64,000 bases of DNA, taken from contig CAVUKB010000010.1 of the NCBI GenBank assembly GCA_963741955.1, forward strand, positions 288,001 through 352,000. The letters are read 5' to 3'. The DNA is from an uncultured Acidobacteriota bacterium. GTDB lineage: Bacteria; Acidobacteriota; Thermoanaerobaculia; Gp7-AA8. The notes below the pieces were generated by a model that saw only the letters and a list, made by a program, of their open reading frames with translations, was not told the DNA's origin and did not search any database. Each line of letters starts with the position of its first letter. The stretch's first letter is position 1. The translations under genes and the position numbers were made by a program. This document shows positions 1,792 to 40,825 of this stretch, piece by piece.

Positions 1792-3267
1792 TCACTCGAT
1801 CCATCCGCGCGCCCTCTCCACGGCGCGGTGCCACGTCTGCAGTTTCTCCTCCCGGGTCGCCGCGTCCATCGAGGGCTCGAATATCCGATCCGCCTTCCAC
1901 TGGCGGTCGATCTCCTGATCCGAGCTCCAGAAGCCGGTCGCGAGTCCGGCGAGGTAGGCGGCGCCGAGCGCGGTCGTCTCCGCCACGCGCGTGCGGACGA
2001 CCGGAATCCCGGCGAGGTCCGCCTGCATCTGCATCAGAAGATCGTTCGTCGAGGCGCCGCCGTCCACCCGGAGCTCGGCGAGCGTGATCCCCGAATCGCG
2101 TTGCATGGCCTCGAGGACGTCCGCGCTCTGCAGGGCGATCGATTCGAGCGTCGCCCGGGCGATGTGAGCGGCGGTCGACCCGCGCGTGAGCCCGAGGATC
2201 GTGCCGCGCGCGTGCGGATCCCAGTAGGGAGTCCCGAGGCCGGTGAAGGCCGGAACGAAGACCACTCCTCCACTGTCCGCGACGGTTGCCGCGAGCGGCT
2301 CGACGTCCGACGCGGTCCGGATGATCCCCAGCTCGTCGCGAAGCCATTGCACCGCGGCGCCGGTGATGAAGATGCTTCCTTCGAGTGCATACTCGAGTGA
2401 CCTCCCGTCGACTGCGGCGACGGTCGAGAGCAGCCCCTGACCGGAGCTGACCACTTCGGATCCCGTGTGCATCACCACGAACGAGCCGGTCCCGTACGTG
2501 TTCTTGGCCATCCCGGGGCGGGTGCAGCGCTGGCCGAAGAGAGCGGCCTGCTGATCGCCGGCGATTCCCGCGATCGGGATTCCTTCCGGAATCGGAAGGC
2601 CGGCCGCGGTCTCGCCGTACACCTCGCTCGATGAGCGGACTCCCGGAAGGAGGGCGCGCGGAACACCGAGGAGCGAGAGGAGCTCGTCGTCCCACTGACC
2701 GCGCCGGATGTCGAACATCAGCGTGCGCGATGCGTTCGTCGCATCCGTCACGTGGACTCCGCCGGTGAGCTTCCAGATCAGCCAGCTGTCGACCGTTCCG
2801 AATGCGAGCTCGCCGTGTGCCGCGCGCTCTCGCGCTCCCACGGTATGGTCGAGCAGCCACCTCAGTTTCGTTCCCGAGAAGTACGCGTCGAAGAGGAGGC
2901 CGGTCTTCTGACGGAAGAGCGGCTCGTGTCCCGCGGCCCGCAGCTCTTCGCACATCGGCGCGGTTCGCCGGTCCTGCCAGACGATCGCGTTCGCCACCGG
3001 ACGTCCGGTGGCTCGGTCCCACAACAGAGTCGTCTCGCGCTGATTGGTGATACCGATCGCGGTGATGTGCGGGTGACCGCCCTTTTCGAGAACCTCCGCC
3101 GCGACTTCGATCTGGCTCGACCAGATTTCTTCCGGATCATGCTCCACCCATCCGGGCCGGGAAAAGATCTGACGGAACTCGCGCCGGGCCACGTGCGCGA
3201 CGTTCCCTTCCGCGTCGAACACGATCGCGCGGCTGCTGGTGGTTCCCTGATCGAGTGCGAGAATCAT
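1792..3267 (-). CDS. glpK: Glycerol kinase
   Basis: [55 protein letters not shown] motifs. Confidence 0.96.
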
Positions 3268-5255: not shown

Positions 5256-7472
5256 ATGATGGAAATGACCCTCTACGGACGCGGCGGACAGGGAGGCGTG
5301 ACCCTCGCGAAACTGATCGCGACGGCCTACTTCCTCCGCGGCAAGTACTCTCAGGCCTTCGGAGTCTATGCGGCCGAGCGCTCCGGCGCGCCGATTCAGG
5401 CTTATGTCCGGATCGACGACACGGAGATCACGAATCACAACCAGATCCGCGAGCCCGATCACGTGATCGTGCTCGACCCCACGCTGATCGCTCCCGGCAT
5501 CCTCGCCGGACTCGATCCGGAGGGGTGGATCATCCTGAATACACCGCGCTCACCTGCGGCCTGGGAGAGTCTCTTCCCCGGACGGCGGGTCGCGACCATC
5601 GACGCAACCGGGATCGCAGTGGAAAAAGGTCTCGGAACGCGGGCGGTTCCGATCGTCAACACGACGATGATGGGCGCCATCGCGAAGATCTTCGGAGTCA
5701 CTCTCGAAGAAGTCCGCGCGACGTTCGGCGAGCTGAAGTTCGGCGGAGCGAATCTCGACGCCGCCGAGGCCGCGTGGAACGAGGTGTCGATGCTGCAGCT
5801 TCCCGGTACGGCGGAGAAGACGACCCCTGTGCCGGTCGCCTCGCGGGTCGCGAGCATTCTCGACGAAGACGTCGGCGGACCACCGCGGATCCGGACCGGC
5901 TCGTGGGCGACGCGGCGTCCCGACCGTCGAACTCTCACCCCTCCCTGCAATCACAGTTGTCCCGCGGGAAACGACGTGCAGAGCTTCATCGAATCGGCGG
6001 CGCACGGAGAGTTCGACGAAGCACTTCGGACGCTCCTCGAGACGAATCCACTCCCCGGAGTCTGCGGCAGAGTCTGTCCGGCTCCGTGCATGGCGGGCTG
6101 CAACCGCATCGCGTGGGACGAGGGGATCAACGTCCGTGGGCTGGAGCGCTATGCAGCGGATCACGGCTCGTGGCCCGACACCACCTCGCCCTGGCGGCGC
6201 GAGCGCGTCGCGGTGGTCGGTTCTGGTCCGGCCGGCCTGAGTGCCGGATATCAGCTCGCCCGGCTCGGCTACCACGTCACACTCTTCGAAGCGGCGAGTG
6301 AGCTCGGAGGAGTTCTCCGCAACGGAATCCCGGACTATCGGCTCCCGAAAGAGGTCATCGATCGGGAGATCGGATTCATTCTGATGCACGGGCTGACCGT
6401 CTACACCGATTCGTTCATCGACCGGAGCGAGCTCCTTCGCCTGACCCGGCAGTACGCGGCCGTCTTCGTTGCAACGGGACTGCAGAGCGCACGTTCTCTC
6501 GACCTCGGAGCACCCGGAGTCGTGGCGCAGGGGATCGATTTTCTCGACCAGGTGCACCGCGGCGAGATCTCGTTGAAAGGTGAGCGAGTGATCGTGGTGG
6601 GCGGGGGGAACACCGCCATCGACGCGGCGCGCTCCTCACGACGACTCGGTGCATCCGAGGTCACCATCCTCTACCGGCGGAGCCGGGCCGAGATGCCTGC
6701 GATCGAAGAGGAGATCGACGCCGCGCTGGAGGAGGGGATCGAGCTCCGCGAGCTCGCGCTTCCTCTGGTGGTCAACCGCGAGCCGGACGGAGAGCATCTG
6801 ATGACCTGCGTCCAAATGAAGCTCGCCGAGCCGGACGAGAGCGGGCGGCGCCGTCCCGTGGTGGACGATCGTCCCGATGCACAGTTCATCATTCCCTGCG
6901 ATCGGGTCATCCTCGCCCTCGGGCAGTCGGCCGACCTCTCCATCATCGGAGAGGGAGGGGAGATCCGCGAGAACGGAGCGCTTCTCGGGCTCGCCGAAGC
7001 TCCGGTCTTCGTGGGTGGGGATTTCGGGACGAACGAAGGAACGGTCACCGCGGCGATCGGAAACGGCCGCCGCGCCGCGTGGCACATCCACCGGGCGCTC
7101 ACGGGCGAAGATCTCTTCCCGAAGGTCGAGCCACCGCGGGTGGCCGGCGGCGAGGATCTCCACGTGCAGCTCTTCCCGCACGCGGGACGCGAGAACGGTG
7201 CGGTGCTCGATCCCGAAGTCCGGCAGCGTGGCTTCATGGAAGTGCACGCGGGGCTCGACGATGCGATCGGAGCGGCGATGAGCGAAGCGCAGCGCTGCTT
7301 CAGCTGCGGCGTCTGCAACGACTGCGATCGCTGCATCACCTACTGTCCGGAAGGGATACTCGCCAGGAACGGTGACGGCGAATATCTCTTCAACTACGAC
7401 TACTGCAAAGGATGCGGAATCTGCGCCTCGGAATGTCCGCGCGGTGTCGTGTTCATGTCGGAGCTCGCCTGA
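5256..7472 (+). CDS. Fusion of 2-oxoacid:acceptor oxidoreductase gamma subunit, GltD/DsrL-like FAD/NAD(P)H oxidoreductase and C-terminal 2x[4Fe-4S] (delta-like) domain
   Basis: YGRGGQGGVT and AERSGAP (gamma). TPPCNHSCPAG, CGRVCPAPC, GSGPAGL, GGGNTAID and YRRS (GltD-like). CFSCGVCNDCDRCITYCP and CKGCGICASECP. ATG 5256 follows GGAG. Confidence 0.88.
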   Translation: MMEMTLYGRGGQGGVTLAKLIATAYFLRGKYSQAFGVYAAERSGAPIQAYVRIDDTEITNHNQIREPDHVIVLDPTLIAPGILAGLDPEGWIILNTPRSPAAWESLFPGRRVATIDATGIAVEKGLGTRAVPIVNTTMMGAIAKIFGVTLEEVRATFGELKFGGANLDAAEAAWNEVSMLQLPGTAEKTTPVPVASRVASILDEDVGGPPRIRTGSWATRRPDRRTLTPPCNHSCPAGNDVQSFIESAAHGEFDEALRTLLETNPLPGVCGRVCPAPCMAGCNRIAWDEGINVRGLERYAADHGSWPDTTSPWRRERVAVVGSGPAGLSAGYQLARLGYHVTLFEAASELGGVLRNGIPDYRLPKEVIDREIGFILMHGLTVYTDSFIDRSELLRLTRQYAAVFVATGLQSARSLDLGAPGVVAQGIDFLDQVHRGEISLKGERVIVVGGGNTAIDAARSSRRLGASEVTILYRRSRAEMPAIEEEIDAALEEGIELRELALPLVVNREPDGEHLMTCVQMKLAEPDESGRRRPVVDDRPDAQFIIPCDRVILALGQSADLSIIGEGGEIRENGALLGLAEAPVFVGGDFGTNEGTVTAAIGNGRRAAWHIHRALTGEDLFPKVEPPRVAGGEDLHVQLFPHAGRENGAVLDPEVRQRGFMEVHAGLDDAIGAAMSEAQRCFSCGVCNDCDRCITYCPEGILARNGDGEYLFNYDYCKGCGICASECPRGVVFMSELA

Positions 7473-7495
7473 GGCCAGCCGACGGAGGAAAACGA

Positions 7496-8668
7496 ATGGC
7501 ACGCACACTTTGTACCGGGAACTACGCGGCGGGGCATGCCCTCGCCGTGGCGGGCGAGGCGAACCGTCTCGCGCGCGGCTGCGCCGGAGGCGCTTACCCC
7601 ATCACTCCGCAGACCGAGATCATCGAATATCTTCGAGCGTTTCCTTTCAGCAAGGGACGGGTGGTACCGGTGGAGTCGGAGCACAGCGCGATGGGCGTCT
7701 GCATCGGTGCCTCTCTCGCCGGGGCCAGGTCTTTCACCGCGAGCTCGTCGAACGGGCTCGCGTACATGACCGAGAACGTCTTCGCCGCGGGCTACTACCG
7801 TCTGCCGATCGTCCTCATCGCGGTGAACCGGACCCTCGGGCCGCCCTGGAACATCTGGGTGGACCAGGGAGACAGTCTCGCGCTGCGGGATGCGGCGTGG
7901 CTGCAGTTCTACACCGAGTCGCATCAGGACCTCGCGGATACCGTCCTGCTGGCGTTCCGGGTGGCGGAGGATTCGAAAATCCTTCTGCCGGCGATCGTCG
8001 CGCTGGACGGGTTCGTCACCTCGCACACCCAGATGGTGGTCGATCTCCCGGAACAGGGGCTGGTCGACGGCTATCTCCCGGCGTGCTCCGTGCCGCACGG
8101 GCTGCGGCATGACCGCCCCTCCACGGTCGGAGGGTTGACCTGGCCGCGCGAGACCGAGCACCACCGCCGGGAGATTCAGGAGGCGATGGAACGAGTGCCC
8201 GAGGTACTGGACCGTGCGATCGACGAATTCGAGATCGTCTTCGGTCGGCGTCCGGACGGGGCGGTGACCAGCGAATGGACCGAGGATGCCGAGACGGTTC
8301 TCATCGCGACGAACACCATGGCGTCCACTCTCCGGGACGTGGTGCGCGAGCGCCGGAGCCGAGGTGAGAAGGTCGGGATGATCAAACTGAAGATGTTCCG
8401 GCCATTCCCGCGCGCCGAGATCCTTCGCGCAATCGGTCCGGCGAAGAGAGTGGGAGTGCTCGATCGCAATCACTCCCCGGGATCGGGAGGGATTTTCTGG
8501 AACGAAGTCGCCACGTCGCTGCGACAGCGGCCGGACGTCCTGGTTCAGGACTATCTGGTCGGGCTCGGCGGTGGAGACGTGACCCCTGAAGTGATCGGCG
8601 GAATCATCGACGATCTCAGCGGCCGGACCGAATCGGCCGATCCGCTCTGGAAGGAGGTGGCGGTATGA
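7496..8668 (+). CDS. porA: Pyruvate/2-oxoacid:ferredoxin oxidoreductase alpha subunit
   Basis: YPITPQTEI, VESEHSA, FTASSSNGL, FRPFP, GLGGGDVT. ATG 7496 with GGAGG RBS. Confidence 0.9.
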   Translation: MARTLCTGNYAAGHALAVAGEANRLARGCAGGAYPITPQTEIIEYLRAFPFSKGRVVPVESEHSAMGVCIGASLAGARSFTASSSNGLAYMTENVFAAGYYRLPIVLIAVNRTLGPPWNIWVDQGDSLALRDAAWLQFYTESHQDLADTVLLAFRVAEDSKILLPAIVALDGFVTSHTQMVVDLPEQGLVDGYLPACSVPHGLRHDRPSTVGGLTWPRETEHHRREIQEAMERVPEVLDRAIDEFEIVFGRRPDGAVTSEWTEDAETVLIATNTMASTLRDVVRERRSRGEKVGMIKLKMFRPFPRAEILRAIGPAKRVGVLDRNHSPGSGGIFWNEVATSLRQRPDVLVQDYLVGLGGGDVTPEVIGGIIDDLSGRTESADPLWKEVAV

Positions 8669-24550: not shown

Positions 24551-24576
24551 CGAACGGAACGGCCGCGACCCGTGTT
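24551..24576 (+). promoter_or_regulatory. Possible autoregulatory ECF promoter CGAAC-N18-GTT
   Basis: Spacing matches SigR/SigH-type GGAA(C/T)-N18-GTT, about 40 bp before the sigma start. Confidence 0.35.
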
Positions 24577-24618
24577 CTTTCTGGTATGAGAAGCAGCTGG
24601 ACCGGAGGGCGAGCCGTG

Positions 24619-25206
24619 ATGCAACAGAGTTCGACCGCGGATCTCGCCCTTGCCGTACACCGTCGTGAACCGGGCTCATTCGAGCGTCTCGTCGAGCGCT
24701 TCGAGGCGAGCCTGTTCAACTATGCGCACCGCATCCTGGGCAATCCTTTCGATGCCCAGGAGGTCGTCCAGGACGCGTTTCTCCGTGCGCACGACGCGCT
24801 GACGCGGCGCTACGAATCCAGCCGGGCCGCGGAGCTGGCCCTCCGCCCATGGCTCTTCCGAATTGCCCGGAACCTTTGTTTCAACAAGCGGCGAGGCAGG
24901 AAGACGAAGCTCGACGAGCCGCTCTCGAGCTTCGACGACAGTCGCATCGGGCCGCTCGTCCCGCCGAGCTCGGTGGGCGCGGCCCTCGAGGCGCGTCAGG
25001 AGAAAGAAGCACTCGACCGGGCACTGGCGACGCTTCCCGCCGAAAGTCGTGAGCTGATCATCCTTCGATTCATGGAGGAGATGTCGTATGCCGAGATCTC
25101 GAAGACCCTCGGGGCGGAAGAGACCGTGCTTCGCGGTCGCGTGTTCCGTTCGCTGAAGCTTCTGAGACAAGCGCTCGACCGCAGCGAGGTGACCCATGCA
25201 GTGTAG
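24619..25206 (+). CDS. ECF sigma-70 family factor
   Basis: DAQEVVQDAFLRA, RPWLFRIARNLC, LRFMEEMSYAEIS. GGAGG RBS (start GTG 24616 or ATG 24619). Confidence 0.92.
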   Translation: MQQSSTADLALAVHRREPGSFERLVERFEASLFNYAHRILGNPFDAQEVVQDAFLRAHDALTRRYESSRAAELALRPWLFRIARNLCFNKRRGRKTKLDEPLSSFDDSRIGPLVPPSSVGAALEARQEKEALDRALATLPAESRELIILRFMEEMSYAEISKTLGAEETVLRGRVFRSLKLLRQALDRSEVTHAV

Positions 25207-26089
25207 ATCCGTGCTGACCCGCATCGACGCTCTCCGCACCGGAGAGCTCGAGAACCGTGAATCCGACGACGTACGCGAGCACCTCGAGGTTTGCACGAGC
25301 TGTCACGAGTCGCTCGACGACGTGGAGGAGTTCGCCGGCGCGATCCGCGGACTGGCGACCCAGCCGTTCCGCTCCTGCCTCTCCGATGTCGCGAAGGCGT
25401 TGACGGATTCATTCTCGCTGGTGCAATCGGGTGATCTTCGGGCATGGGTTGCGTTCTCCGGCCGCGGAATCCGGATGATCGACCTCGGGAGTCCGGACGA
25501 AGAGTCGTTCCGGGGGCGATACGAGCAGCGTTTCGGAAGAGCGCTGCGCGAAGAGGCGCTCAGCGATCGTCAGAGGAGCGCGGTGGAACGCGCGCTCGCC
25601 GGTGAGCCGGGAGAGCTGCCGGAGATCGACCTCGAAGGACTGACGGAGTTCGAACAGAAAGTCCTTCGAACCATCGTCGGCATTCCGCGCGGCGAAGTGC
25701 GCTCGTACGAATGGGTCGCGCGGAAGGCAGGACGCCCCGGCGCAGCGCGCGCGGTGGGGAACATCATGGCTTCCAATCCCGTCCCGCTGCTCCTTCCCTG
25801 CCATCGCGTCGTTCCGGCCGCGGGCGGAATCGGAAAGTACGGCTACGGACCGGAGATGAAGCGGCGGATCCTCGCCGCGGAGCACGCGCCGGTGGCAGAG
25901 ATCGAACGACTGGCGAAGGAGGGGGTCCGGTTCATCGGATCGCGGATCACGAAGATCTTTTGTTGCCCGACCTGTCGCGACGCGCGGCGGATCCGGGAAG
26001 AGAACCGCGTCCTCTTTCACGACGCATCGGAGGCCGAGAGCCATGGATTCCGTCCGTGCAGGCGCTGCACTCCCGTCGCTGCTGCATGA
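25196..26089 (+). CDS. Zn-finger anti-sigma / O6-methylguanine-DNA methyltransferase / Ada Zn-binding domain fusion
   Basis: MQC...HLEVCTSC (ZAS). IPRGEVRSY..ARAVG..NPVPLLLPCHRVV (MGMT). KIFCCPTC...GFRPCRRC (Ada N-domain). Confidence 0.9.
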   Translation: MQCRSVLTRIDALRTGELENRESDDVREHLEVCTSCHESLDDVEEFAGAIRGLATQPFRSCLSDVAKALTDSFSLVQSGDLRAWVAFSGRGIRMIDLGSPDEESFRGRYEQRFGRALREEALSDRQRSAVERALAGEPGELPEIDLEGLTEFEQKVLRTIVGIPRGEVRSYEWVARKAGRPGAARAVGNIMASNPVPLLLPCHRVVPAAGGIGKYGYGPEMKRRILAAEHAPVAEIERLAKEGVRFIGSRITKIFCCPTCRDARRIREENRVLFHDASEAESHGFRPCRRCTPVAAA

Positions 26090-26759
26090 TCCGGCCGTCT
26101 GCTGTGCGGCGGTCGTTCCGAAGTGGTCGATCGACGCGGAGTCGCTTCCGGCGTCCGGCTTCAGCGGCGACTTCTGGATGACCTCCGAATGCGGCGACGC
26201 CCTCTGGTTCGCTGCGGGCGATTTCGCGGGACATGGACTCCAGGCCGCGGTTCCGATGGCGATGCTCCAGGAGGAGATCGAGTGCCTCACCCACGAGGAT
26301 CCCGATGCGCTCGTCGAGTCGATCGTCACCGAGGTCGACCGGGCGCTCAAATCGTTCCTCCCGTCGAATCGATTCGCCACACTCGTCCTCGGGCGGGCGA
26401 CGAATGACGGCGAGATCGAGATCGTGAACGCGGGGCACTGCTACCCGGTGGTCCTTCGGGCGGACGGGTCCCTCGAGTGGATCCCTTCGCATGGGCCGGT
26501 GGTCGGAATCAGCCCGTTCGCCGAGTGGCGATGCGAGCGCATTTCGCTCGATCAGGGAGACCGGCTGATCATCTACTCCGACGGCGTGGTCGAAGCGGAG
26601 GATGCGGCGGGCGAAGAGCTCGGGAGCGAGCGACTCGCGGAGTTCCTCGCTCGTGCGCCCCGGGCGGAGCTGATCGAGACCGTGCTTCGCGAAGTGAAGC
26701 GCTTCACCGGTGGCGTGCGTCGCGACGACGCGACGCTGTTCGTGCTCGCGCGCGAATAG
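26043..26759 (+). CDS. Stand-alone PP2C/SpoIIE-type phosphatase
   Basis: SGDFW, GDFAGHG, NAGHCYP, YSDGVVEA, DDATL. Start uncertain. Confidence 0.85.
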   Translation: MDSVRAGAALPSLLHDPAVCCAAVVPKWSIDAESLPASGFSGDFWMTSECGDALWFAAGDFAGHGLQAAVPMAMLQEEIECLTHEDPDALVESIVTEVDRALKSFLPSNRFATLVLGRATNDGEIEIVNAGHCYPVVLRADGSLEWIPSHGPVVGISPFAEWRCERISLDQGDRLIIYSDGVVEAEDAAGEELGSERLAEFLARAPRAELIETVLREVKRFTGGVRRDDATLFVLARE

Positions 26760-30576: not shown

Positions 30577-33276
30577 GTGATGCTTTCGATTCTTCTGGTG
30601 GACTTCTTCTCGCGGGGAGCGACTCTTGCGGTCAGCCGCGAGATCACGATCGCCCCCTGGTGGATCGTCACCGCGGTGGCGGCCGTGATCTCGCTGTTGT
30701 TCTTCTTCCATGGATGGCGGGCGGCTGCTCGCAGCCTGGTCGAAGGGCGCGGCACGACCATGAAGTTGCTGCGTGTCCTCCTGATCGCGAGTGTGACGGT
30801 GCCGTTCGCCACAGACGAGTTCCTTCGCGCGCTCGGCAGCGGAGGGATCTTCGACTCCGCGACGATCGAATCGCTGGAGAAGATCGTCGTGGCGACTCTG
30901 CTGGGACTGATCATCCTGTACGCAGCGAAGTCGGTGCAGAGGAGTGAACGGCTCCGGCTGGCGGCGCTCGAGGAGTTGAGGACGAGCCGGGAACATCTTC
31001 AGCTGCAGATCGATTCGATGCCGTTCGCGTACATCACCTGTTCACCGGCGATGCTGATCACCCGATGGAACCCGGCGGCGGAGAAAATCTTCGGATGGAC
31101 CGCCGAGGAGATCGTCGGAAGAGGTGCAGACGTGCTGACTCCGGAGTACAGCGATCTGATGTCCGCCGGGTTCGAGGAAGAAACGGCTGGCGGTGGCGGG
31201 CGACAGAGCGTCACACCGAAGCGGTCGAAGAGCGGCCGGATCATCCTCTGCCGGTGGGAAGAAACGGCTCTGGTCGACGACCAGGGCAATCTCGTCGAGC
31301 TCATTGCCATGGCCAGTGACGTCACTGCCGAGCAACGGGCGCAGAGAGAGTTCCAGGATGCCGAGAGACGTCACCGGGAGCTTCTGGACACGCTTCCGCA
31401 CTGCATCTTCAGTGTGGATCTGCACGATCGGTACACCGCCGTGAATGCCGCGACCTGCGAATTCTTCGGGCTCCCCGAGGCTGAGATCATCGGACGCTCA
31501 CCGCTCGAGATCGGATTGCCGGCGGAGCTGAGCCGGGAATGGCTCGAACAAAAAGCGTCATGCCGCCAGGCGGGAAGGACGCTGGTTTTCGATCGACGGG
31601 TGACGGTTCGAGGCGAAGCTCGCATGCACGAGACGATTCTCTCTCCGATGCGAGCCGGTGACGGTTCGATCATCGGAGTCACGGGAATCTCGATCGACGT
31701 GACGGAACTTCGCGACGCCGAGGAGACCGCATCGGAGCTCCTGCGCGCGGTCGAGCAGCTCGACGAAGTGATCTTCATTACTGACCGTGAAGGGGCCATC
31801 ACGTATGTGAACCCCGCATTCGAGCGCGTCTACGGGTTTGAACAACACGAGGTGCTCGGTCAGACGCCGCGGCTGCTCAAGAGCGGCGAGCTCACCCCGG
31901 AAGCAGTACGGCATTTCTGGTCCGAGATCATCGCCGGACGGAACGTCCGCGCTGAATATCGCAATCGGCGGAAAGACGGAACGCTGGTGACCGTCATCGC
32001 GTCGGCGACGCCGCTCTTCGACGACCACGGAGAGATCCGTGGTTTCGTCGCCATCCAGCAGGATGTCACGGCGCAGAAGGAGGCGGAAGAAGAGCGGGCC
32101 CGTCTCGACGCCCGTCTGACTCAGTTCGCGAAAATGGAGGCCCTCGGCACCCTGGCAGGAGGCATCGCCCACGACTTCAACAATATCCTCGCGGTCATTC
32201 TCGCGCATGTCTCTCTGGTGGACCGGCTTTCGGGCGCGGAGCCCCGTACGGCTCGAGCAGTCGAAACGATCAGGCATGCAGTCCAGCGCGGTGCCTCGCT
32301 TTCCCGGCAGATTCTCACGTTCGCTCGTCGGACGGAGATGGAGCGCCAACGCACCGATCTCGCGAGCATCATTCTCGAGCTCGGGCAAATGGTCTCGGAA
32401 ACATTTCCACGCACGATCGAGCTGACGATCGATCTCGATCCTGACCTCCCCGCGGTCGACGGTGACGGGGGACAGATTCATCAGGCCCTGCTGAACCTCT
32501 GCGTCAATGCCCGGGATGCGATGCCGGACGGGGGAAGTCTCCACGTCACTGCCCATCCGCTTCATCCGGGTGGCGGGCCGGTGACCCTCGAGGGAGCGCC
32601 TCCCGGCGACTACGTCTGCGTCTCGGTCTCCGATACTGGATCGGGAATGGACGGAGAGACCCTTTCGCGGATCTTCGATCCGTTCTTCACCACCAAGGAA
32701 AAGGGGAAGGGAACCGGGCTCGGTCTCGCCCTCGTCTATGGCATCGTCAATGCGCATCGAGGAATCGTCACGGTCGACTCGGAAGTGGGAGGAGGGACGG
32801 TGTTTCGCCTCTACCTTCCGGCTGCCGCGGACCAAGTGGAGAGGGACGAAGAACCGACGCTCGCCGGACTCGAAGGGATGGGAGAGACACTACTGGTCGT
32901 CGAAGACGAAGCGCAGCTGCTCGAGGCGATCACTCTGCATCTGCGTACGCGCGATTATCGCGTGATCACGGCATCGAACGGGCCCGACGCCGTCCGCCTG
33001 CTGCAGTCCGCCAGCCCGCCACCCGATGCGGTGATCATCGATCTGGGAATGCCGAAAATGGGTGCCGCAGAGCTGATCGAAAATCTGCGGAAAGCATCTC
33101 CCGGAATCGCGATCCTGGCGATGACCGGCTACGTCGAACCGGAGATCCATGCGAACGTGCTACGGTCGGGCGTGGAGTGCATCATTCAGAAGCCGTTTCA
33201 GGTGGAGCATCTCATCGCGAAACTGCGGAACGTTCTCGATCGCCAGAATGAAGAGGAAGATCGCGAGGCGAGCTGA
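30577..33276 (+). CDS. Hybrid sensor kinase (TM, 3 PAS, HisKA, HATPase, receiver)
   Basis: [26 protein letters not shown] (PAS). [38 protein letters not shown]. Confidence 0.93.
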
Positions 33277-33306
33277 CCTCGTTTCCCCCCCCGGATCTCT
33301 TCGATC

Positions 33307-34377
33307 TCAGACAGGCGGCGCGCAGGCGATGACCAGCATGGTCACGTCGTCGTCGTACGGCCGATTGCGGCCGAAACGCGCCAGGGTCTCGACGATCGAG
33401 GAGCAGATCTGCTCCGCCGAGCCGACCTCGCTCCGGCTCAGAAGCTCGCGAAGACGGCCTTCACCGAATTCATCACCCTCGCGGTTCTCGTACTCCGTCA
33501 CGCCGTCACTGTAGATCACCAGCCGGTCTCCGGGTGTGAGTTGGATGCGGACTGAGTGATATTCGGCGCCCGGAAGGATGCCTGTCACCGGTCCGGTCGG
33601 TTCGAGTCGCACCAGAGTGCCGTCGGCGCGGCGAAGGAGCGGCGGATTGTGTCCTCCGCTCGCGTAGAGCAGCTCACCGTTCTCCGTGTCGAGGAGTGCG
33701 TAGAAGATGGTGACGAAGGAACCGCGACGGAGGCGATGGCACTCGACCCGGTTCAGTGTGCCCAATACGTGTTCGGGCGCCAGCCGATCCGCCGTGAGCG
33801 CGTGAATGGTTGCCTGTACGTTCGACATGGTGAGCGCCGCGGCCATTCCTTTTCCCGAGACATCCGCCAGACAGATCGCGATCCGATGTGGTCCGGCCTC
33901 GATCACGTCGTAGTAGTCTCCGGCGACCGTCCACGCAGGGATCCACCGCGATGCGATGTCGACGTTCGGAAGAGACGGAACCGACGGGAGAAGATGACGC
34001 TGCACTTCCTGAATCAGATCTCGTTCGCGTTCGGTCTGCTTCCTCAGTGTGCTCACGACCACGTTCAGGAAGAGGAAGACCGCGAGCATCGAGATGTCGT
34101 TGAGGTAGGCGATCGGCGCCTTGGGTTCCGCCAGTGGACCGATCCGGTCGGCCACCGCCCAGGTGATCGCCGCGAGGAGCGCGAGAGCGTGCGCTCTCCG
34201 GGTACCCGCGATCCACGCGGTGGCGGTGACCGGAACGAGATAGAGCACGAGGAGCGAGACGATCGGTCCGGTGAAGTGATCGAAGAAACCGATCGCCACG
34301 ATCGCCAGGGCGGCTCCCGTCGTGAAGCGGTCCGGCGGGGTCGCTTCGACGCGACGCATCCAGGAGTTGAAGTTCAC
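33307..34377 (-). CDS. Membrane-bound PP2C/SpoIIE (RsbU-like) phosphatase
   Basis: N-terminal TM helices. AGDYYD, ADVSGKG, GGHNPP, YSDGVTE, DDVT. Confidence 0.92.
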   Translation of the reverse strand: MNFNSWMRRVEATPPDRFTTGAALAIVAIGFFDHFTGPIVSLLVLYLVPVTATAWIAGTRRAHALALLAAITWAVADRIGPLAEPKAPIAYLNDISMLAVFLFLNVVVSTLRKQTERERDLIQEVQRHLLPSVPSLPNVDIASRWIPAWTVAGDYYDVIEAGPHRIAICLADVSGKGMAAALTMSNVQATIHALTADRLAPEHVLGTLNRVECHRLRRGSFVTIFYALLDTENGELLYASGGHNPPLLRRADGTLVRLEPTGPVTGILPGAEYHSVRIQLTPGDRLVIYSDGVTEYENREGDEFGEGRLRELLSRSEVGSAEQICSSIVETLARFGRNRPYDDDVTMLVIACAPPV

Positions 34378-34389
34378 TCTTCTTCCCCG

Positions 34390-35226
34390 TCAGCGGGTTC
34401 CTTTCGCCCAGTGAACGAAGGATCCGTTCGAGTAGACCAGATCGTTGTCGTATCCGGCGACCTCTCCCGATTCATCGTTCAGATATTCGAGCAGCTGCTG
34501 GTGCTCGAAGGTACCGTCTTTCCCGGCGCTCGCAATGACGTAGCCGTCGCACACTCCATTCTCACAGACGGCCGCGTACCGGATCGGATTCCCCCACCCG
34601 TCGACTCGCGGAAGAGTCCGGACGTAGGTCGGTTCGAGAAGAGTCGCGAGCGCCGATTCCGATGCGACGTCGGGATACGCCCGCTTGTCGACGGCATACG
34701 CTTCGACCGCCGTCGCCACCGTCCTCATATCCGCGGCGGTGCGCTTCTGCTTCGAGCGCTGAATCGCGGTGAGAAAATTCGGAATCGCGATCGCGGCGAG
34801 GACTCCGGGTATGTAAAGGAGGATCATGATCAGCGCGGCGATCCCGGTGAACTTCCAGAACGACTTCTGCTGGCGGAGCGCATCTTCCACCGATGCCACA
34901 CGAGGTCCGGTGGTGATCGCACGTCCGATCGCGCTGGCATACCGCGAGAGATAAAGCGCGGGGAAGAAGTAGAGGAGCGCGAGAAGCGAGTAGAGCACGC
35001 CGAGGCCGGCGACGACGATGCCACCCCCTGCAGACTTCGTCGCCGAGCCTCCGATCAGGCCGAAGCCGACCATGAAGATGCCGATGATGAGAATGAGCCC
35101 CGCAGCGATGAAGCCGAGAACCGAAAGGAGACGAACCCACGGTTTCGTCCTGCGCAACGAGTCGAGCATCGGGCCGGTGAGGAGATCACGGGGTGGCGGA
35201 ACCGAGGCGGTGAAAGGAGCATCCAT
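34390..35226 (-). CDS. DUF5362-like membrane domain fused to GspG/pilin-like domain
   Basis: TKPWVRLLS...QKSFWKFTGI, then LAAIAIPNF...KRTAADMRTVATAVEAY..D..YP..DGWGNP. Confidence 0.75.
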   Translation of the reverse strand: MDAPFTASVPPPRDLLTGPMLDSLRRTKPWVRLLSVLGFIAAGLILIIGIFMVGFGLIGGSATKSAGGGIVVAGLGVLYSLLALLYFFPALYLSRYASAIGRAITTGPRVASVEDALRQQKSFWKFTGIAALIMILLYIPGVLAAIAIPNFLTAIQRSKQKRTAADMRTVATAVEAYAVDKRAYPDVASESALATLLEPTYVRTLPRVDGWGNPIRYAAVCENGVCDGYVIASAGKDGTFEHQQLLEYLNDESGEVAGYDNDLVYSNGSFVHWAKGTR

Positions 35227-35332
35227 CGGGTGGGCCTCCGAGTCTGGATTCTTGATGCCCCGGAATTATAGACCAGTCCGCACCGATGCCGATGCGACGC
35301 GCCCCCGCCGAAGCGCGCCGCATCTCTCCCCA

Positions 35333-36091
35333 TCAATCGTCTCGATCACGTCGATCACCGTCGTCCCGATCGTGGTCGCTCTGGCCGCCGCGGCCGTCGC
35401 GCCACCCATCGCCCGACCGTTGGAGCGAATCGGCGACGAAGTTACGACCGGAGTACCATCCGCTGAAGGCGGCGTAGCTTCCGCGATGGAGTCCGCGGGC
35501 CCACCGGTTTCCGTCGCTGCGGCCGAGCGCCCTGGTGTCGATGGTGATGTCGCCGACGCGGTCGCTGTGCAGCACCACGAGATCGCGGTTCCGCTGGATG
35601 GAGACGATCGTTCCTTCGACGTACGCCGTGACGCGGCTGCCGTGCTGGTCGTACCCGCGGCCATACGTGTCGTTAGGGCCGTACGGATCGTACTGGCCGT
35701 AGGCGCGATCGCGCACGCTCTCGAGAACGGTCACTGAGCGGGCGTGGAGTCGCGAGGAGCGGGACCCGGAGAGGTCGACGCCGACCCGGTCACCCCTCTC
35801 GAGGTCGCGGATCCGGTAACGGCGGCCGCGATACCACGCCACGATCCCTCCTTTGGCGTCGATCCGGAGAACGCCACGGTTCGTCCGAAGGGTGAATTCA
35901 TCTCCGTTCGGATTGACCCAGTCGACCACGCCTTCGACATCCCACCGGCTTTGCGTCGATGACCCTCCGCCGTCCCCCGGTCCGTTCGTCCTCCAGTCGA
36001 GACGCTGTTCCGCGAATACGGACAGTGCCGAGAGGGCGAAGACCGCGATGGCGATTGTCGTAACTCTTTGAATTCTTGTGCCTTGTACCAT
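35333..36091 (-). CDS. Secreted protein with two OB-fold/DUF5666-like repeats
   Basis: Signal peptide ending VFA. Two VEG.V/I...DLERGDRV-type repeats. ATG 36091 with GAGG RBS. Confidence 0.7.
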   Translation of the reverse strand: MVQGTRIQRVTTIAIAVFALSALSVFAEQRLDWRTNGPGDGGGSSTQSRWDVEGVVDWVNPNGDEFTLRTNRGVLRIDAKGGIVAWYRGRRYRIRDLERGDRVGVDLSGSRSSRLHARSVTVLESVRDRAYGQYDPYGPNDTYGRGYDQHGSRVTAYVEGTIVSIQRNRDLVVLHSDRVGDITIDTRALGRSDGNRWARGLHRGSYAAFSGWYSGRNFVADSLQRSGDGWRDGRGGQSDHDRDDGDRRDRDD

Positions 36092-36341
36092 CGGTTCCTC
36101 CCGTTCGATCGAGCTTCCGTCAACCGAAGTGCGCAATCGTCGCGCCATGCGGGCGCCGGGACGACCTGATTCGAGTTCCCCTTCAGGAGGGTCATGTCTT
36201 CGGTTCGCTCACGACCGAGAGGCTCCGCGATCCGCAGGCTCGGATTTCCAATTTCGAAGAGCGAAAGAGACGCAAGTGAATTCTCGTTCTGGTGTATGGT
36301 CCTCGGAGGGAGTTCCTCCTGTTTTGTCGCGGAGCTCGGGC

Positions 36342-37727
36342 ATGGCGAAAACCGATCAGAAAGCGATCACCTCCGGCGACACCGTCGGTGGAATTCCCAA
36401 CGCCCTGAGGTCTCAGGTGGCGGTCCTCGACGCGGACGGATGGATCGTCTGGACCAATGAGTCGTGGCGGCGTTTCGCGCAGGAAAACTCGACCACCGAC
36501 GGCGCCGCCTATCTCGGATGGAACTACCAGTCCGTCTGTGAGGCGGCTGCTCGATCCGGCGCGTCCCCCGCCGCGGCGGTCCTTCAGGGAATCATGTCCG
36601 TGCGTGCGGGAACGAGCGACGAGTTTTCGCTGGAATACGAATGCCACTCGCCGTCGGCGGAGCGCTGGTTTCTGCTTCGCGTGACGCGTCTCGCGGCCGA
36701 TTCCCCCGGGGCGCTGGTGGTCACGCACGACGACATTACCGAGCGGAGACGGGCGGAGCTCGAATTGAGGGAAGCCGAGCAGAGGCTCCGGAAAGTTCTC
36801 GAGACGCTCCCGGTCGGGGTCTGGATCATGAACCGTGAAGGGATGATCGTTCACGGCAATCCGGCGGGACAGAAGATCTGGGCGGGGGCCCGTTACGTCG
36901 GCCCGGGTGATTTCGGAGAATACAAAGGATGGTGGGTCAGCAGCGGGAAGCCGATCGCCGCGGACGAGTGGGCGGCGGCGCGCGCGATCCGGAACGGTGA
37001 GATCTCCATCGACGAGGAGGTCGAGATCGAGTGCTTCGACGGAAGCCGGAAGATCATTCTCAACTCCGCGATGCCGCTGCTCGACGCGAACGGAAGGACC
37101 TCCGGCGCGATCATCGTCAACCAGGACATCACCCAACGGAAACGTTACGAGAGCGCGCTGCAGCTGGCGAACGAGAAGTTCGAGAGGGCGAATCTCGAAC
37201 TGAAGGAAGCGCTCGCGCGCGAGCATACTCTCGCGGGCCTCGACAGCCTCACCGAAGTGCACAACCGGCGTTACTTCTTCGAGCTCGCCGAGCACGAGCT
37301 CAACGTCGCCACGCGCTACGGTCACGCGATCTCGATCGTTCTGTTCGATATCGATCACTTCAAGGCGGTCAACGATCAATTGGGACACGAGGCGGGAGAC
37401 TACGTGCTGAAAGAGGTCGCCGGGATCATGAAGACGCAGCTTCGCGAGTCGGACGTCCTCGCGCGGTACGGGGGGGAAGAGTTCATCCTCCTGATGCCGA
37501 ACACCCGCGCTGTCGACGCGATGGTGGTCGCGGACCGGATCCGCGAGCGGATCGCTTCCGTGACCATGTTCCTGCGCACCGGAGTCAGCGTGGTGACCGT
37601 CAGTGGAGGCGTGGCCGATACCGAATCGGCGACCGGAGGGCTCGACGCCATCGTACGGGAAGCCGACCGCGCGCTCTATCGCGCGAAGGCAGCGGGGCGT
37701 AACCGCGTGATGATGAACCGGCGTTGA
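36342..37727 (+). CDS. PAS-PAS-GGDEF diguanylate cyclase
   Basis: DSLTEVHNRR, DIDHFKAVND, RESD I-site, YGGEEF, ADRALYRAK. Start taken at ATG 36342. Confidence 0.92.
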   Translation: MAKTDQKAITSGDTVGGIPNALRSQVAVLDADGWIVWTNESWRRFAQENSTTDGAAYLGWNYQSVCEAAARSGASPAAAVLQGIMSVRAGTSDEFSLEYECHSPSAERWFLLRVTRLAADSPGALVVTHDDITERRRAELELREAEQRLRKVLETLPVGVWIMNREGMIVHGNPAGQKIWAGARYVGPGDFGEYKGWWVSSGKPIAADEWAAARAIRNGEISIDEEVEIECFDGSRKIILNSAMPLLDANGRTSGAIIVNQDITQRKRYESALQLANEKFERANLELKEALAREHTLAGLDSLTEVHNRRYFFELAEHELNVATRYGHAISIVLFDIDHFKAVNDQLGHEAGDYVLKEVAGIMKTQLRESDVLARYGGEEFILLMPNTRAVDAMVVADRIRERIASVTMFLRTGVSVVTVSGGVADTESATGGLDAIVREADRALYRAKAAGRNRVMMNRR

Positions 37728-37730
37728 AGT

Positions 37731-38426
37731 TCATCCGGACTCCTCCACCCTTCGACCCAGCTCCTCGAGCTTCGCGTGGTCCTTCACGATCACTTTTTCC
37801 CGTCCCGATTTCACGATCCCCTCGGCATCCCACGACTTGAGAAGCCGGCTCACCGTGAAGAGGGTCGTGCCGATCATCTCCGCCAGATCCTGGCGCGAGA
37901 GAGTCAGCGCCGGCGAGGCCGATTCGATCCGCTGTTCTTCCAGTTTCACCAGGACCCGCGCCAGCCGCTGCGGCACGGGGATCGTCGCCAGCTCGTGAAA
38001 GCGCTCCTGCAACTCCTGCATCCGCTCGGAGACGATCTTCATCGCATCGACCGCGATCTGCGGATGACGCTCGAGGTAGGGCTGGAGGACCTCTCGCGAC
38101 CAGCCGATGAGCACTGCACCGGTCGTCGCAACCGCGCTGACTGGATAACGGAAGCTGCGCAGCGCAGCGACCACTCCGAACAGCAGACCCGGAGTCATGA
38201 ACGCGACGATCATCTGCTCTCCATCGCGGGTGAGCTTCGAGAGTCGGATCTGTCCTTCCGCGACGATCCACGCCCAGTGGCCTTCATCGCCCTGGTGGAA
38301 AAGGATCTCCCCCGGAACGAGCGTGCGGAGGGTGGTCTGCCGGACGAGCTCGTCGATCTCGCCGGGAGCAAGATGCTCGAAAACAGGGCAGGCTTCCACG
38401 TGTCCTCTGATCGTCGCCGGATCCAC
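37731..38426 (-). CDS. Crp/Fnr family regulator, NnrR/Dnr-like
   Basis: LFHQGD, LSRQDLAEMIGTTLFTVSRLLKSW helix-turn-helix, no FNR Cys cluster. GTG 38426 with GGGAGA RBS. Confidence 0.9.
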   Translation of the reverse strand: MDPATIRGHVEACPVFEHLAPGEIDELVRQTTLRTLVPGEILFHQGDEGHWAWIVAEGQIRLSKLTRDGEQMIVAFMTPGLLFGVVAALRSFRYPVSAVATTGAVLIGWSREVLQPYLERHPQIAVDAMKIVSERMQELQERFHELATIPVPQRLARVLVKLEEQRIESASPALTLSRQDLAEMIGTTLFTVSRLLKSWDAEGIVKSGREKVIVKDHAKLEELGRRVEESG

Positions 38427-38466
38427 ATGGACATTCTCCCGTCTCCGCGGTCGCGGAACAACCGTT

Positions 38467-38484
38467 GATTGACCCGGCGCAAAG
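38467..38484. promoter_or_regulatory. Fnr/NnrR-type box gaTTGACccggCGCAAag
   Basis: TTG-N8-CAA dyad between the divergent regulator and narK. The right arm CGCAAAG matches the NnrR-type consensus. Confidence 0.55.
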
Positions 38485-38699
38485 AAGACATTTTCCGGTG
38501 GCTCGATACTGATTGCGACTCCTGTGTCGAGGACTGAAGCGCTCCACTGCCACGAATCGCGACTCGAGTCGTGGCAGCCCGCAAATTCGAGCCATAAGAT
38601 GATCACCGGAATTTCGAATTCTTCATTCCTCTCCAGCCGCCGCATCGGCGGTGAAAGGGGTGACAGTCCCGGTCGAATCTTCTTCTCCGGAGGCGTCAG

Positions 38700-39995
38700 A
38701 TGAGCAGAATCAAGGGGACACCGCGGCAAGGCCTCTTCGCGGCGACCCTCGGCTTTTTCGTCGGCTTTGCAGCCGTCGCGCTGTTCGGTCCCACCGCGAA
38801 ACTCTTCTCCGATCCGCTGCACCTCTCGTCGCTGGCTGCAGGATTTCTGATCGCCATGCCGGCACTCTCGGGCTCTCTTCTCCGGATCCCGTTCTCCGCG
38901 TGGGTCGACACGACCGGAGGCCGCAAGCCATTTCTCGTGCTCCTCACTCTCTCTCTGGTCGGAATGGCGGGCGTTCTCGCGGTGGTCCTCCTCTTCTATC
39001 CGTCGAGGATGACCGGCGCCGTCTACCCGCTGCTCCTCCTTCTCGGCGTCCTCTGCGGATGCGGGATCGCGACTTTCTCCGTCGGGATCAGTCAGGTCGC
39101 GTACTGGTATCCGCAGAAATCGCAGGGACGAGCGCTGGCGATCTTCGCCGGGATCGGAAACGTCGCGCCGGGCATCTTTTCTTTTCTCATTCCGGTGGCG
39201 CTGGTGAGTCTCGGACTGAGTGGTGCCTATCTCGCGTGGCTGATCTTCCTCGCCGCAGGCACCATCGTCTACTTCGCGTTCGGCCGGAATGCCTGGTTCT
39301 TCCAGCTCCGCACGGAGGGAGCGTCGGTCGACGAGGCGAGGAATGAAGCGAAGTCGATGGGACAGGAGCTCTTCCCCGCCGGAAGTCTTCGTGAAAGTCT
39401 CGCTGCATCCGCGAAAGTCTGGAAGACGTGGGCGCTGGTGTCGATCTACTTCACAACCTTCGGCGGGTTCATCGCGCTCACCGCATGGCTGCCGACGTAC
39501 TGGACGCAATATTTCGGGCTGTCGCTCGTCACGGCGGGCCTTCTCACCGGGATCTATTCGGTCCTCACCTCGCTGATCCGGATCGTGGGCGGACTGGTCG
39601 CCGACAAGCTTCGTGAAGGGGGTGAGAACACCGCTGTCCTCGCTCTCCTGGTGATGCTGGTGGGAGCGCTGGTGATGACCATGGCTCGTGAATACGAGCT
39701 CGCCATTCCGGGGATCATTCTTCTCGCCTCCGGAATGGGGATCTGCAACGCGGCGGTGTTCAAGATCGTTCCGCAGGCGGTGCCGCACGCCGTAGGCGGC
39801 GCTGCGGGGTGGGTGGGTGGACTCGGCGCGTTCGGCGGATTCGTCATTCCGCCGATGCTCGGCTTCGCGGTCAGGGATCTCGGTAACCGCGGCTACGCGA
39901 TCGGCTTCATCATCTTCATCTTCCTTGCTCTCTTTTCGCTCGCGATGGCCTGGATGCTCAAGTACATCCCGAATCCCGATGAGGTTCCGACGTGA
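38700..39995 (+). CDS. narK: Nitrate/nitrite porter (MFS, NNP family)
   Basis: 12-TM pattern, GSLLRIP, YFTTFGGF, NAAVFKIVP, GGLGAFGGF. First gene of the nar operon. Confidence 0.9.
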   Translation: MSRIKGTPRQGLFAATLGFFVGFAAVALFGPTAKLFSDPLHLSSLAAGFLIAMPALSGSLLRIPFSAWVDTTGGRKPFLVLLTLSLVGMAGVLAVVLLFYPSRMTGAVYPLLLLLGVLCGCGIATFSVGISQVAYWYPQKSQGRALAIFAGIGNVAPGIFSFLIPVALVSLGLSGAYLAWLIFLAAGTIVYFAFGRNAWFFQLRTEGASVDEARNEAKSMGQELFPAGSLRESLAASAKVWKTWALVSIYFTTFGGFIALTAWLPTYWTQYFGLSLVTAGLLTGIYSVLTSLIRIVGGLVADKLREGGENTAVLALLVMLVGALVMTMAREYELAIPGIILLASGMGICNAAVFKIVPQAVPHAVGGAAGWVGGLGAFGGFVIPPMLGFAVRDLGNRGYAIGFIIFIFLALFSLAMAWMLKYIPNPDEVPT

Positions 39996-40825
39996 GAGCG
40001 CTCGTGCGGGGATCGCTCGTCGTGCTCGCGGCTCTGGCGGTCGGAGCTGCGGCGTGGGGGGAGAGCCCGCCCGGACCGGCGAGTTCCGCGAGTGCGTCAC
40101 CCGCCGCCGCGAACGCACCGGCCGATCCCGCAGCCGACTACTTTCTGGACACCTGCGCCGGGTGCCACACCATCGGGGGTGGAGTACTCACAGGGCCGGA
40201 CCTCCAGAAAGCCACTGCATGGTCAGCGGACGACCTCCATGCCGCAGTCAAGCGGATGGAGAAAAACGTCGGTCCGATGAGCGACGAGCGGGTCAGCGCT
40301 CTGGTGTCCCTCCTGAAGAGCGGCGAGGTTCAGAAGCGGCTCGAGGCGGCGAAGGAGCGACGCAGGGTCGAGCTCACCGCGACACTGGTGCCGGGCTCCC
40401 CCGCGACCGGCCGCGATCTCTTCTTCGGAGCGAAGACCTTCGCCTCCGGCGGAATTCCGTGTGCAGCCTGCCACGCCGTCGGCGGCGAAGGAGGAAACAT
40501 GGCGGTCGACCTCACTGCCGTCTATCCGCGACTCGGCGAACAGTCGCTGATGTCGACCATCGAACGTCCGGCCTTTCCTCTGATGAAGACCGCCTACGGC
40601 GCTCACGTCGTGAGCTCTCAGGAGGCGATGGATCTCTCGGCCTTTTTCAAGTCCGTGGGGAAAGGGCTGCCGCGTGACGCGAGCGTTCCGCCCCGGAATC
40701 TCGCAGCGCTGCACGGAACCGCGGCCGGGCTGGTGATCGTCGCACTCGGCGGTGTGGCGTGGATCTTCCGCTCGCGTCGCGGCGGATTGAGAAGACGGAT
40801 GCTGCGCGACTCGTACAAGAGGTGA
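39992..40825 (+). CDS. Membrane-anchored diheme cytochrome c (NarC-like)
   Basis: Signal peptide, CAGCHTIGGG..GPDL, CAACH, C-terminal TM helix. Confidence 0.87.
   Translation: MRALVRGSLVVLAALAVGAAAWGESPPGPASSASASPAAANAPADPAADYFLDTCAGCHTIGGGVLTGPDLQKATAWSADDLHAAVKRMEKNVGPMSDERVSALVSLLKSGEVQKRLEAAKERRRVELTATLVPGSPATGRDLFFGAKTFASGGIPCAACHAVGGEGGNMAVDLTAVYPRLGEQSLMSTIERPAFPLMKTAYGAHVVSSQEAMDLSAFFKSVGKGLPRDASVPPRNLAALHGTAAGLVIVALGGVAWIFRSRRGGLRRRMLRDSYKR

Follow-up and report, generated by a model that had tools for sequence, protein, structure and literature searches.

A putative anti-sigma domain fused to two alkylation-repair domains beside an ECF sigma factor gene in an uncultured Acidobacteriota bacterium

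The adaptive response to alkylation in Escherichia coli is driven by Ada, in which an N-terminal zinc domain (N-Ada, with C38 as its methyl acceptor) is followed by an AraC-type helix-turn-helix (HTH) and a C-terminal alkyltransferase (C-Ada), and to our knowledge alkylation adaptive responses are understood almost solely through Ada-type activators. Signalling by extracytoplasmic function (ECF) sigma factors is understood through membrane proteolysis, redox chemistry, partner switching and phosphorylation. The locus described here lies in a 64,000-nt stretch of DNA from an uncultured Acidobacteriota bacterium (contig CAVUKB010000010.1, positions 288,001 to 352,000; G+C approximately 64%), hereafter the window. 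In it, an ECF sigma factor gene overlaps a gene for a single protein (hereafter the fusion) that combines a putative zinc-binding anti-sigma (ZAS) domain, an O6-alkylguanine-DNA alkyltransferase and an Ada-type zinc domain, and this second gene in turn overlaps one for a SpoIIE/PP2C-type phosphatase. We put at about even the chance that the three genes form a self-regulating sigma/anti-sigma/phosphatase module, in which the anti-sigma factor is a bifunctional suicide alkylation-repair protein whose hold on the sigma factor is released by alkylation.

Pairs of an ECF sigma factor and an alkyltransferase have been catalogued in the ECF classification of Casas-Pastor 2021 (Nucleic Acids Research, PMC7826278), where, among the group descriptions through ECF295, 'methylguanine' appears only under ECF122 and ECF203. 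ECF122 is described there as 100% Actinobacteria, with a 6-O-methylguanine methyltransferase at position +1, 'no putative AS factors' and the promoter motif CTCAC / CGTCTAC, while ECF203, likewise 100% Actinobacteria, is described with a methyltransferase at +1, 1.22 Ada_Zn_binding domains per ECF, a TetR neighbour and no anti-sigma factor identified. In the portion of PMC8999054 that was covered, ECF122 is placed under unknown mechanism. The window resembles both groups in having an alkyltransferase at +1 of the sigma gene, and Ada_Zn_binding also occurs in ECF203; moreover, four actinobacterial loci of ECF122/ECF203-like type from the genome scan described below (L008, L018, L021 and L024) carry the same AAC-N15-17-GTGTT promoter motif as the window. 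Judged by the group descriptions, the window is set apart by its closest relatives, which are Thermoanaerobaculia, by the explicit ZAS domain on the partner and by its promoter, CGAAC-N16-GTGTT. No TetR gene was seen near the locus in the domain scans of the window.

The pairing of sigma factor and methyltransferase, whose earlier cataloguing went unmentioned in the first-pass annotation of this DNA, was already on record as ECF122 and ECF203, but the anti-sigma reading and the explicit ZAS-bearing form outside Actinobacteria, together with the probably leaderless promoter common to several linked loci and the -AA ending of the fusion, are best called new within the literature searched. Full-text searches, whose coverage did not extend to Huang et al. 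2015 (where ECF122 was first described) or to bioRxiv supplements, found no report of an alkyltransferase acting as an anti-sigma factor or of a ZAS-alkyltransferase-Ada fusion. A 2023 review of alkyltransferases (PMC10779285) mentions fusions to EndoV and to histone-like proteins, and the covered part of its text never uses the word 'sigma'.

The two proteins belong to the ECF and alkyltransferase families and probably also to the ZAS family, and the fusion is best understood by comparison with three described systems. Like E. coli Ada it holds two suicide acceptor domains in one protein, and like Ada it is proposed to be both sensor and repair protein under autoregulation. It differs in having no AraC/HTH_18 domain, in an Ada zinc domain that is C-terminal and N-terminally shortened, and in its predicted output, where an ECF sigma factor would be sequestered instead of a promoter being bound directly. 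Since the AraC domain is missing and the Ada equivalog model NF011964 scores far below its cutoff (107 bits against 345), the fusion does not count as an orthologue of Ada. With the ZAS proteins of the RsiW/SigW (5wuq) and RsrA/SigR pairs it shares the C-x25-H-x3-C-x2-C ligands, an N-terminal helical domain and a gene that overlaps the sigma gene. Unlike that class, the fusion is soluble, its C-terminal part consists of two DNA-repair acceptor domains instead of a membrane or periplasmic sensor, and it is proposed to receive its signal when an alkyl group is transferred to it covalently and irreversibly. Finally, it shares an -AA-type C-terminal end (V-A-A-A) with RseA(1-108) and RsdA, although in the fusion this is the natural encoded C-terminus and not a product of membrane proteolysis.

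The fusion protein and its predicted hold on the sigma factor

The first gene encodes an ECF (group 4) sigma-70 factor with regions 2 and 4 only, as matched by Sigma70_r2 (PF04542) and Sigma70_r4_2 (PF08281) in Pfam and by the NCBIfam model TIGR02937 for ECF sigma-70 factors (85.1 bits; cutoff 42.9). The sigma, fusion and phosphatase genes lie head to tail on the + strand, each overlapping the next (Table 1). The ATG of the fusion is placed 11 nt ahead of the sigma stop codon, and the resulting 11-nt overlap is retained in three loci (L001 and L002 from Thermoanaerobaculia, L003 from Chloroflexia) recovered in a scan of GTDB genomes for relatives of the fusion, in which the best 80 of 596 confirmed matches were kept as the sample and the loci were classified by script. 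That sigma factor and fusion are made together as a pair is strongly supported by this gene arrangement.

Judged from its sequence, the fusion contains a complete alkyltransferase, and both acceptor sites are intact. The alkyltransferase is matched by DNA_binding_1 (PF01035, E 4.8e-28) and by TIGR00589 ogt (87.4; cutoff 46.4), with the active site at P201-C202-H203-R204, and the Ada zinc domain by Ada_Zn_binding (PF02805, E 8.3e-14; 51.8 bits; cutoff 23), its C256, C260, C288 and C291 aligning in HMMER to C38, C42, C69 and C72 of N-Ada (1adn). A profile was built from 23 full-length relatives (36-64% identity), none of which departs from the fusion in the four putative ZAS ligands, in PCHR or in the four Ada cysteines. 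It matched C-Ada over residues 68-230 (1sfe, E 7e-32), N-Ada over residues 248-295 (E 1e-9) and the anti-sigma factor RsiW over residues 1-73 (5wuq_C, E 1.2e-4). The AlphaFold2 model of the fusion (mean predicted local distance difference test (pLDDT) score 88.7, predicted template modelling score 0.72) begins with helices at residues 3-14, 20-32 and 34-53, followed by a low-confidence hinge at 54-58 and a fourth helix (59-69) that leads directly into the strand with which the alkyltransferase N-domain opens, after which come the alkyltransferase C-domain and a small zinc domain. In Foldseek the model matched solved alkyltransferases with template modelling scores of 0.73-0.80 (normalised to target length) and the N-Ada fold of 1u8b with E 6.7e-3; searching with the whole model brought up no structure of an anti-sigma factor, since the rest of the protein outweighs the small domain at its N-terminus.

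The Ada_Zn_binding match of the fusion spans profile positions 14-64 of 65, the first approximately 13 positions being missing. Other C-terminally placed copies (P0130, P0145, P0189 and P0247) begin at positions 12-18, and in canonical proteins with an N-terminal Ada domain (P0223, P0253 and P0262) the match starts from position 2, so that the C-terminally placed domain resembles a shortened variant.

The N-terminal residues of the fusion carry the ZAS ligands C3, H29-x3-C33-x2-C36, with C3 located 25 residues ahead of H29, a spacing typical for ZAS. When the sigma alignment was paired with residues 1-70 of the fusion alone for complex prediction, the interaction prediction score from aligned errors (ipSAE) reached 0.78 (0.78, 0.77 and 0.80 in the individual runs), while the best of three controls scored 0.00. 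Of 157 solved complexes, 116 attain this mark, as do 2 of 215 mismatched pairs. The runs shared at least 76% of contacts, with a partner pLDDT of at least 86, and the predicted interface joins region 2 (residues 32-69) and region 4 (139-194) of the sigma factor to residues 7-17 and 42-69 of the fusion. The clamp so modelled is the sandwich arrangement known for class I anti-sigma domains.

These results bear on the possibility that the fusion is no anti-sigma factor at all, that the sigma factor merely drives a downstream repair gene, and that the zinc finger serves DNA binding or stability. The zf-HC2 match on residues 3-37 is indeed under the Pfam gathering score (E 2.8e-4; 21.4 bits; cutoff 22.2), and the ECF classification saw no anti-sigma factor beside the ECF122 and ECF203 sigmas. 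The RsiW profile match, the 11-nt overlap retained in L001-L003, the predicted two-sided clamp (0.78 against 0.00) and the fourth ligand C3 at ZAS-typical spacing all speak against it, and we consider it highly improbable. Thus the N-terminal anti-sigma domain suggested by the first-pass annotation is supported by motif, profile match, gene overlap and predicted complex alike. The remainder of its description of the protein likewise agrees with the Pfam matches and with the invariant catalytic and zinc residues: the order ZAS, alkyltransferase and Ada zinc domain, the motifs C...H-x3-C-x2-C and PCHR, the four Ada cysteines, the overlap with an ECF sigma gene, and the absence of AraC (no HTH_18 or HTH_AraC match) together with a reversed domain order relative to Ada.

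The architecture is stable among close relatives. The 120 best matches among 5.8 billion proteins are 272-317 residues long (285-304 in all but five) and, apart from the window's own record, cover the fusion nearly end to end at 51-64% identity. The ZAS, PCHR and Ada cysteine patterns are present in every one of them, and 55 of the 120 carry a precomputed PF13490 annotation. They are named only as methylated-DNA-protein-cysteine methyltransferases, and the taxon, where stated, is Thermoanaerobaculia. An exhaustive search of representatives clustered at 50% gave 106 proteins with E up to 1e-30; among the 150 representatives listed, 14 combine ZAS, PCHR and Ada cysteines, 5 have ZAS and PCHR without the Ada domain, and 79 keep PCHR and the Ada cysteines without H-x3-C-x2-C. 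Atlas clusters, which serve as leads only, point to further members in Methylomirabilota, Chloroflexota, Binatota and Vulcanimicrobiota.

Table 1. Features of the locus, with positions in the window
Feature	Position	Strand	Basis
Candidate ECF-type autoregulatory promoter	24551..24576	+	Motif conserved in relatives
ECF sigma factor, 206 residues	24586..25206	+	Open reading frame (ORF) listing, Pfam, NCBIfam
ZAS-alkyltransferase-Ada Zn fusion, 297 residues	25196..26089	+	ORF listing, Pfam
Putative anti-sigma domain, fusion residues 1-69	25196..25402	+	zf-HC2, ligands, RsiW profile match, model
O6-alkylguanine-DNA alkyltransferase, N-domain 70-134 and C-domain 151-230	25403..25885	+	PF01035, TIGR00589, 1sfe
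Alkyltransferase acceptor Cys202 in PCHR	25799-25801	+	Active-site motif
Ada-type Zn(Cys)4 methylphosphotriester-acceptor domain, residues 242-293	25919..26074	+	PF02805, 1adn alignment
Tail V-A-A-A, candidate ssrA/RseA-like ClpXP degron	26075..26086	+	Homologue tail counts
SpoIIE/PP2C-type phosphatase, 238 residues, catalytic domain alone	26043..26759	+	PF07228, E 1.1e-42

Linkage to ECF sigma genes and a shared promoter

A C-terminal Ada domain was found on 25 of the 80 alkyltransferases in the genome sample, and 23 of these have an ECF sigma gene directly upstream on the same strand, frequently with an overlap of 4 nt. The other two (L013 and L019) end at a contig edge, so that every evaluable Ada-bearing copy (23/23) sits behind an ECF sigma gene and the C-terminal Ada architecture is essentially a marker of ECF linkage. 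Among the 55 alkyltransferases without an Ada domain, 8 have an upstream sigma gene, and in one further locus (L026) the overlapping ORFs were missed by the distance rule. The association between Ada domain and upstream sigma gene is strong (Fisher P = 2e-13). In the sigma tree, the window sigma clusters with those of L001, L002 and L003 (support 99/97); as the tree holds just five rows labelled unlinked, one of which is the alkyltransferase-adjoining L026, whether all linked sigmas form a single clade is not decidable from it.

The full form described in the first-pass annotation, with ZAS, alkyltransferase and Ada zinc domain beside an ECF sigma gene, was recovered in L001, L002, L003 and L037, the last from Rokuibacteriota. 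Other sigma-linked partners have only an N-terminal extension of 20-45 residues, of the type AP..L...VL...GLAD or, alternatively, LDRRFR.AAA..GLLDV, and lack the ZAS ligands (L005, L006, L010, L015-L018, L058, L068, L070 and L073). This short extension corresponds to helix 59-69 of the window protein, and the alignments of the representative search extend back to query residues 44-68. The forms without ZAS helices 1 and 2 are still found behind a sigma gene, many of them behind the same promoter motif. In L003, the ZAS-bearing gene is directly followed by a second alkyltransferase-Ada Zn gene without ZAS (7007-7675, +), which is 38% identical to residues 72-293 of the fusion. A search for direct fusions of sigma factor and alkyltransferase yielded P0189 only, the other long matches being canonical Ada or unrelated fusions. 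This protein of 287 residues has a partial Sigma70_r2 match (25 bits), followed by an alkyltransferase C-domain and an Ada Zn domain; it may be a real fusion of sigma and repair domains, or else have arisen through an assembly or frameshift error.

The distribution of the ZAS ligands is informative as to which part of the protein could act as sensor. The ZAS finger itself could do so in the manner of RsrA, with electrophiles or oxidants attacking the thiolates, zinc being lost and the sigma factor released, in which case the repair domains would be cargo. Zinc thiolates do react with alkylating agents, as in N-Ada; C3, H29, C33 and C36 do not vary among the 23 full-length relatives; and the RsrA model TIGR03988 gives a weak match to the fusion, well below its cutoff (E 3.6e-4; 20.6 bits; cutoff 62.5). 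On the other hand, many ZAS proteins are not redox-responsive, and the 79 of 150 listed representatives that keep PCHR and the Ada cysteines do so without H-x3-C-x2-C. As such forms still lie behind an ECF sigma gene, often with the same promoter, the ZAS zinc site cannot be the common sensor, and the repair domains are the more likely one. We therefore rate sensing by the ZAS finger as unlikely.

The candidate promoter upstream of the sigma gene consists of a -35 element CGAAC (24551-24555) and a -10 element CGTGTT (24571-24576), with 16 nt from AAC to GTGTT and the sigma ATG 9 nt past GTGTT. A candidate autoregulatory promoter had been called here on first inspection, its limits coinciding exactly with the span from -35 to -10, and the element is conserved in relatives: the window, L001 and L002 have in common GCGAAC, 13 variable bases and CCCGTGTTCT, with the ATG 7-8 nt further on. 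Within 200 nt upstream of the sigma gene, the pattern AAC-N15-17-GTGTT occurs in 12 of 30 alkyltransferase-linked loci, compared to approximately 0.07 matches expected in 30 such stretches (Poisson P ~5e-23) from a total of 29 matches on both strands of the 1.59 Mb of DNA fetched. The 12 motif-bearing loci span Acidobacteriota, Chloroflexota and Actinomycetota. The start codon is mostly 8-11 nt past GTGTT, which is so close that leaderless transcripts are probable. That the motif is shared speaks for autoregulation and for a single promoter specificity among the linked sigmas.

The spacing to the promoter also supports the ATG at 24586 as the start of the sigma factor, as does a conserved N-terminal motif, M-R/K-x-S-W-T-G-G, which precedes region 2 and reads MRSSWTGG in the window copy (residues 1-8, 24586-24609). 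Residues S4, W5, T6, G7 and G8 are invariant or nearly so among 27 sequences.

The window holds a single copy of the strict promoter pattern. A loose match at 2480-2503 (+), ACGAAC...CGTGTTCT, lies antisense inside glpK (1792..3267, -), in a conserved coding motif, and is for these reasons probably a chance occurrence. In L002 only, the conserved promoter is preceded, just upstream (approximately 2130-2215, +), by tandem units of about 11 nt resembling CTCCGAGGAAC, each with GGAAC.

A proposed response to alkylation

Under the proposed mechanism, sigma factor and fusion would be co-produced from their overlapping genes, and residues 1 to approximately 69 of the fusion are predicted to hold sigma regions 2 and 4. 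Given the intact active site, Cys202 would irreversibly take one alkyl group from O6-alkylguanine or O4-alkylthymine, and Cys256, whose site also appears intact, one from methylphosphotriesters. We infer that the transfer to Cys202, and perhaps that to Cys256, inactivates the anti-sigma factor: alkylation would destabilise the alkyltransferase fold, which starts right after the sigma-contacting helix 59-69, and the spent fusion would be cleared, probably by ClpXP via its V-A-A-A tail. The freed sigma factor would then transcribe its own leaderless operon from CGAAC-N16-GTGTT, and the consumed repair protein would be replaced roughly one for one. The net effect would resemble the adaptive response run by Ada, with ECF sigma sequestration taking the place of the AraC-type DNA-binding output.

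The alkylation trigger, which the first-pass annotation had likewise proposed, with self-methylation or proteolysis set off by methylation freeing the sigma factor, is suggested by three lines of evidence, namely the destabilisation of alkyltransferases on alkylation, the -AA tails, and the partners that remain sigma-linked without ZAS. According to the covered part of the 2023 review (PMC10779285), alkylation destabilises these enzymes and breaks the contacts between N-domain and C-domain. The tail ends in -AA in 94 of the 120 close homologues (P0001-P0120; VAA in 38, AAA in 28, and LAA, IAA and PAA in 8 each) and lies 4-7 residues past the last zinc cysteine in 111 of them. In the passages of PMC3597663 that were covered, a C-terminal VAA is reported to direct ClpXP to RseA(1-108) and RsdA, which are anti-sigma fragments.

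Several points weigh against this reading. The same passages of PMC3597663 report that RslA, which ends in AAA, withstood ClpXP both as such and when altered to VAA, so that an -AA tail alone is insufficient to make a ClpXP substrate; beyond the close family the AA ending is also rarer (23 of 100 representatives with Ada cysteines). Activity of the Ada domain is not assured, since the first approximately 13 profile positions are missing. The zf-HC2 score falls slightly short of the Pfam gathering cutoff, and the complex score may only mirror likeness to solved ZAS/ECF complexes such as 5wuq. The exact promoter motif is missing in 18 of the 30 linked loci, and in the 64-kb window it was found before no other gene, the antisense match in glpK apart. 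No further alkylation-repair genes were found at 12-40 kb of the window, about 12 kb around the locus. Finally, the PP2C gene has no place in the mechanism.

It is possible, though we lean somewhat against it, that a common logic applies to every ECF sigma factor linked to an alkyltransferase (in Acidobacteriota, Chloroflexota, Actinomycetota, Methylomirabilota and others), including ECF122 and ECF203. Each alkyl group taken would use up one inhibitor, destabilised and removed via its -AA tail, and free one sigma factor, so that transcription would count repaired lesions. Such a system would be an alternative to the Ada regulator that spans phyla. ECF122 and ECF203 would then have been scored as lacking an anti-sigma factor because their partners keep only the short N-terminal sigma-binding helix, and the published absence of anti-sigma factors from these groups may need revisiting.

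Were the alkylation-released module to operate as proposed, a soluble anti-sigma factor that senses by irreversible, single-turnover repair would constitute a new type of input to ECF sigma factors and would offer an explanation for two ECF groups of 'unknown mechanism'. It would further show how alkylation repair is regulated in large, poorly studied soil phyla. With promoter, sigma factor and anti-sigma factor in so compact a system, an orthogonal alkylation biosensor might be built from it.

The third gene and the surrounding signalling genes

The PP2C gene, which was absent from the first-pass reading, belongs to the unit as its third member and shares 47 nt with the 3' end of the fusion gene. 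The trio of sigma factor, fusion and phosphatase is retained in L001 and L002, where the flanking genes are not conserved. The phosphatase was seen in just three loci, all of Thermoanaerobaculia type, and in none of the remaining linked loci. Its contribution may be feedback or a second input.

The presence of this gene raises the possibility of a homeostatic module without damage sensing, in which the anti-sigma factor would act as negative feedback on the level of the repair protein, and input would arrive through Ser/Thr phosphorylation that the PP2C phosphatase reverses. The overlap of the phosphatase gene with the fusion gene and its retention in L001 and L002 fit such a scheme, as does the near-invariant S-W-T-G-G at the sigma N-terminus, which contains both Ser and Thr; that these residues are phosphosites for the co-encoded phosphatase is pure conjecture. 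A precedent is mentioned in the covered part of the Casas-Pastor 2021 supplement (PMC7826278), namely control of the ZAS protein RshA through phosphorylation by a Ser/Thr kinase. Nevertheless, the phosphatase is confined to the three Thermoanaerobaculia-type loci while the pair of sigma factor and alkyltransferase is spread over several phyla, the genes at 12-40 kb of the window include neither a recognised Ser/Thr kinase nor a STAS protein, and dosage feedback alone would not need the strict retention of both acceptor cysteines. We consider this homeostatic scheme improbable.

Signalling genes are dense further downstream, at 30577-40118 of the window. A PAS-rich hybrid histidine kinase (30577-33276, +) adjoins a second, longer SpoIIE phosphatase of 356 residues (33307-34377, -), approximately 7 kb downstream of the locus, and further on come genes for a GGDEF protein (36078-37727) and for a large protein of the cNMP-binding/Crp type (37731-40118, -).

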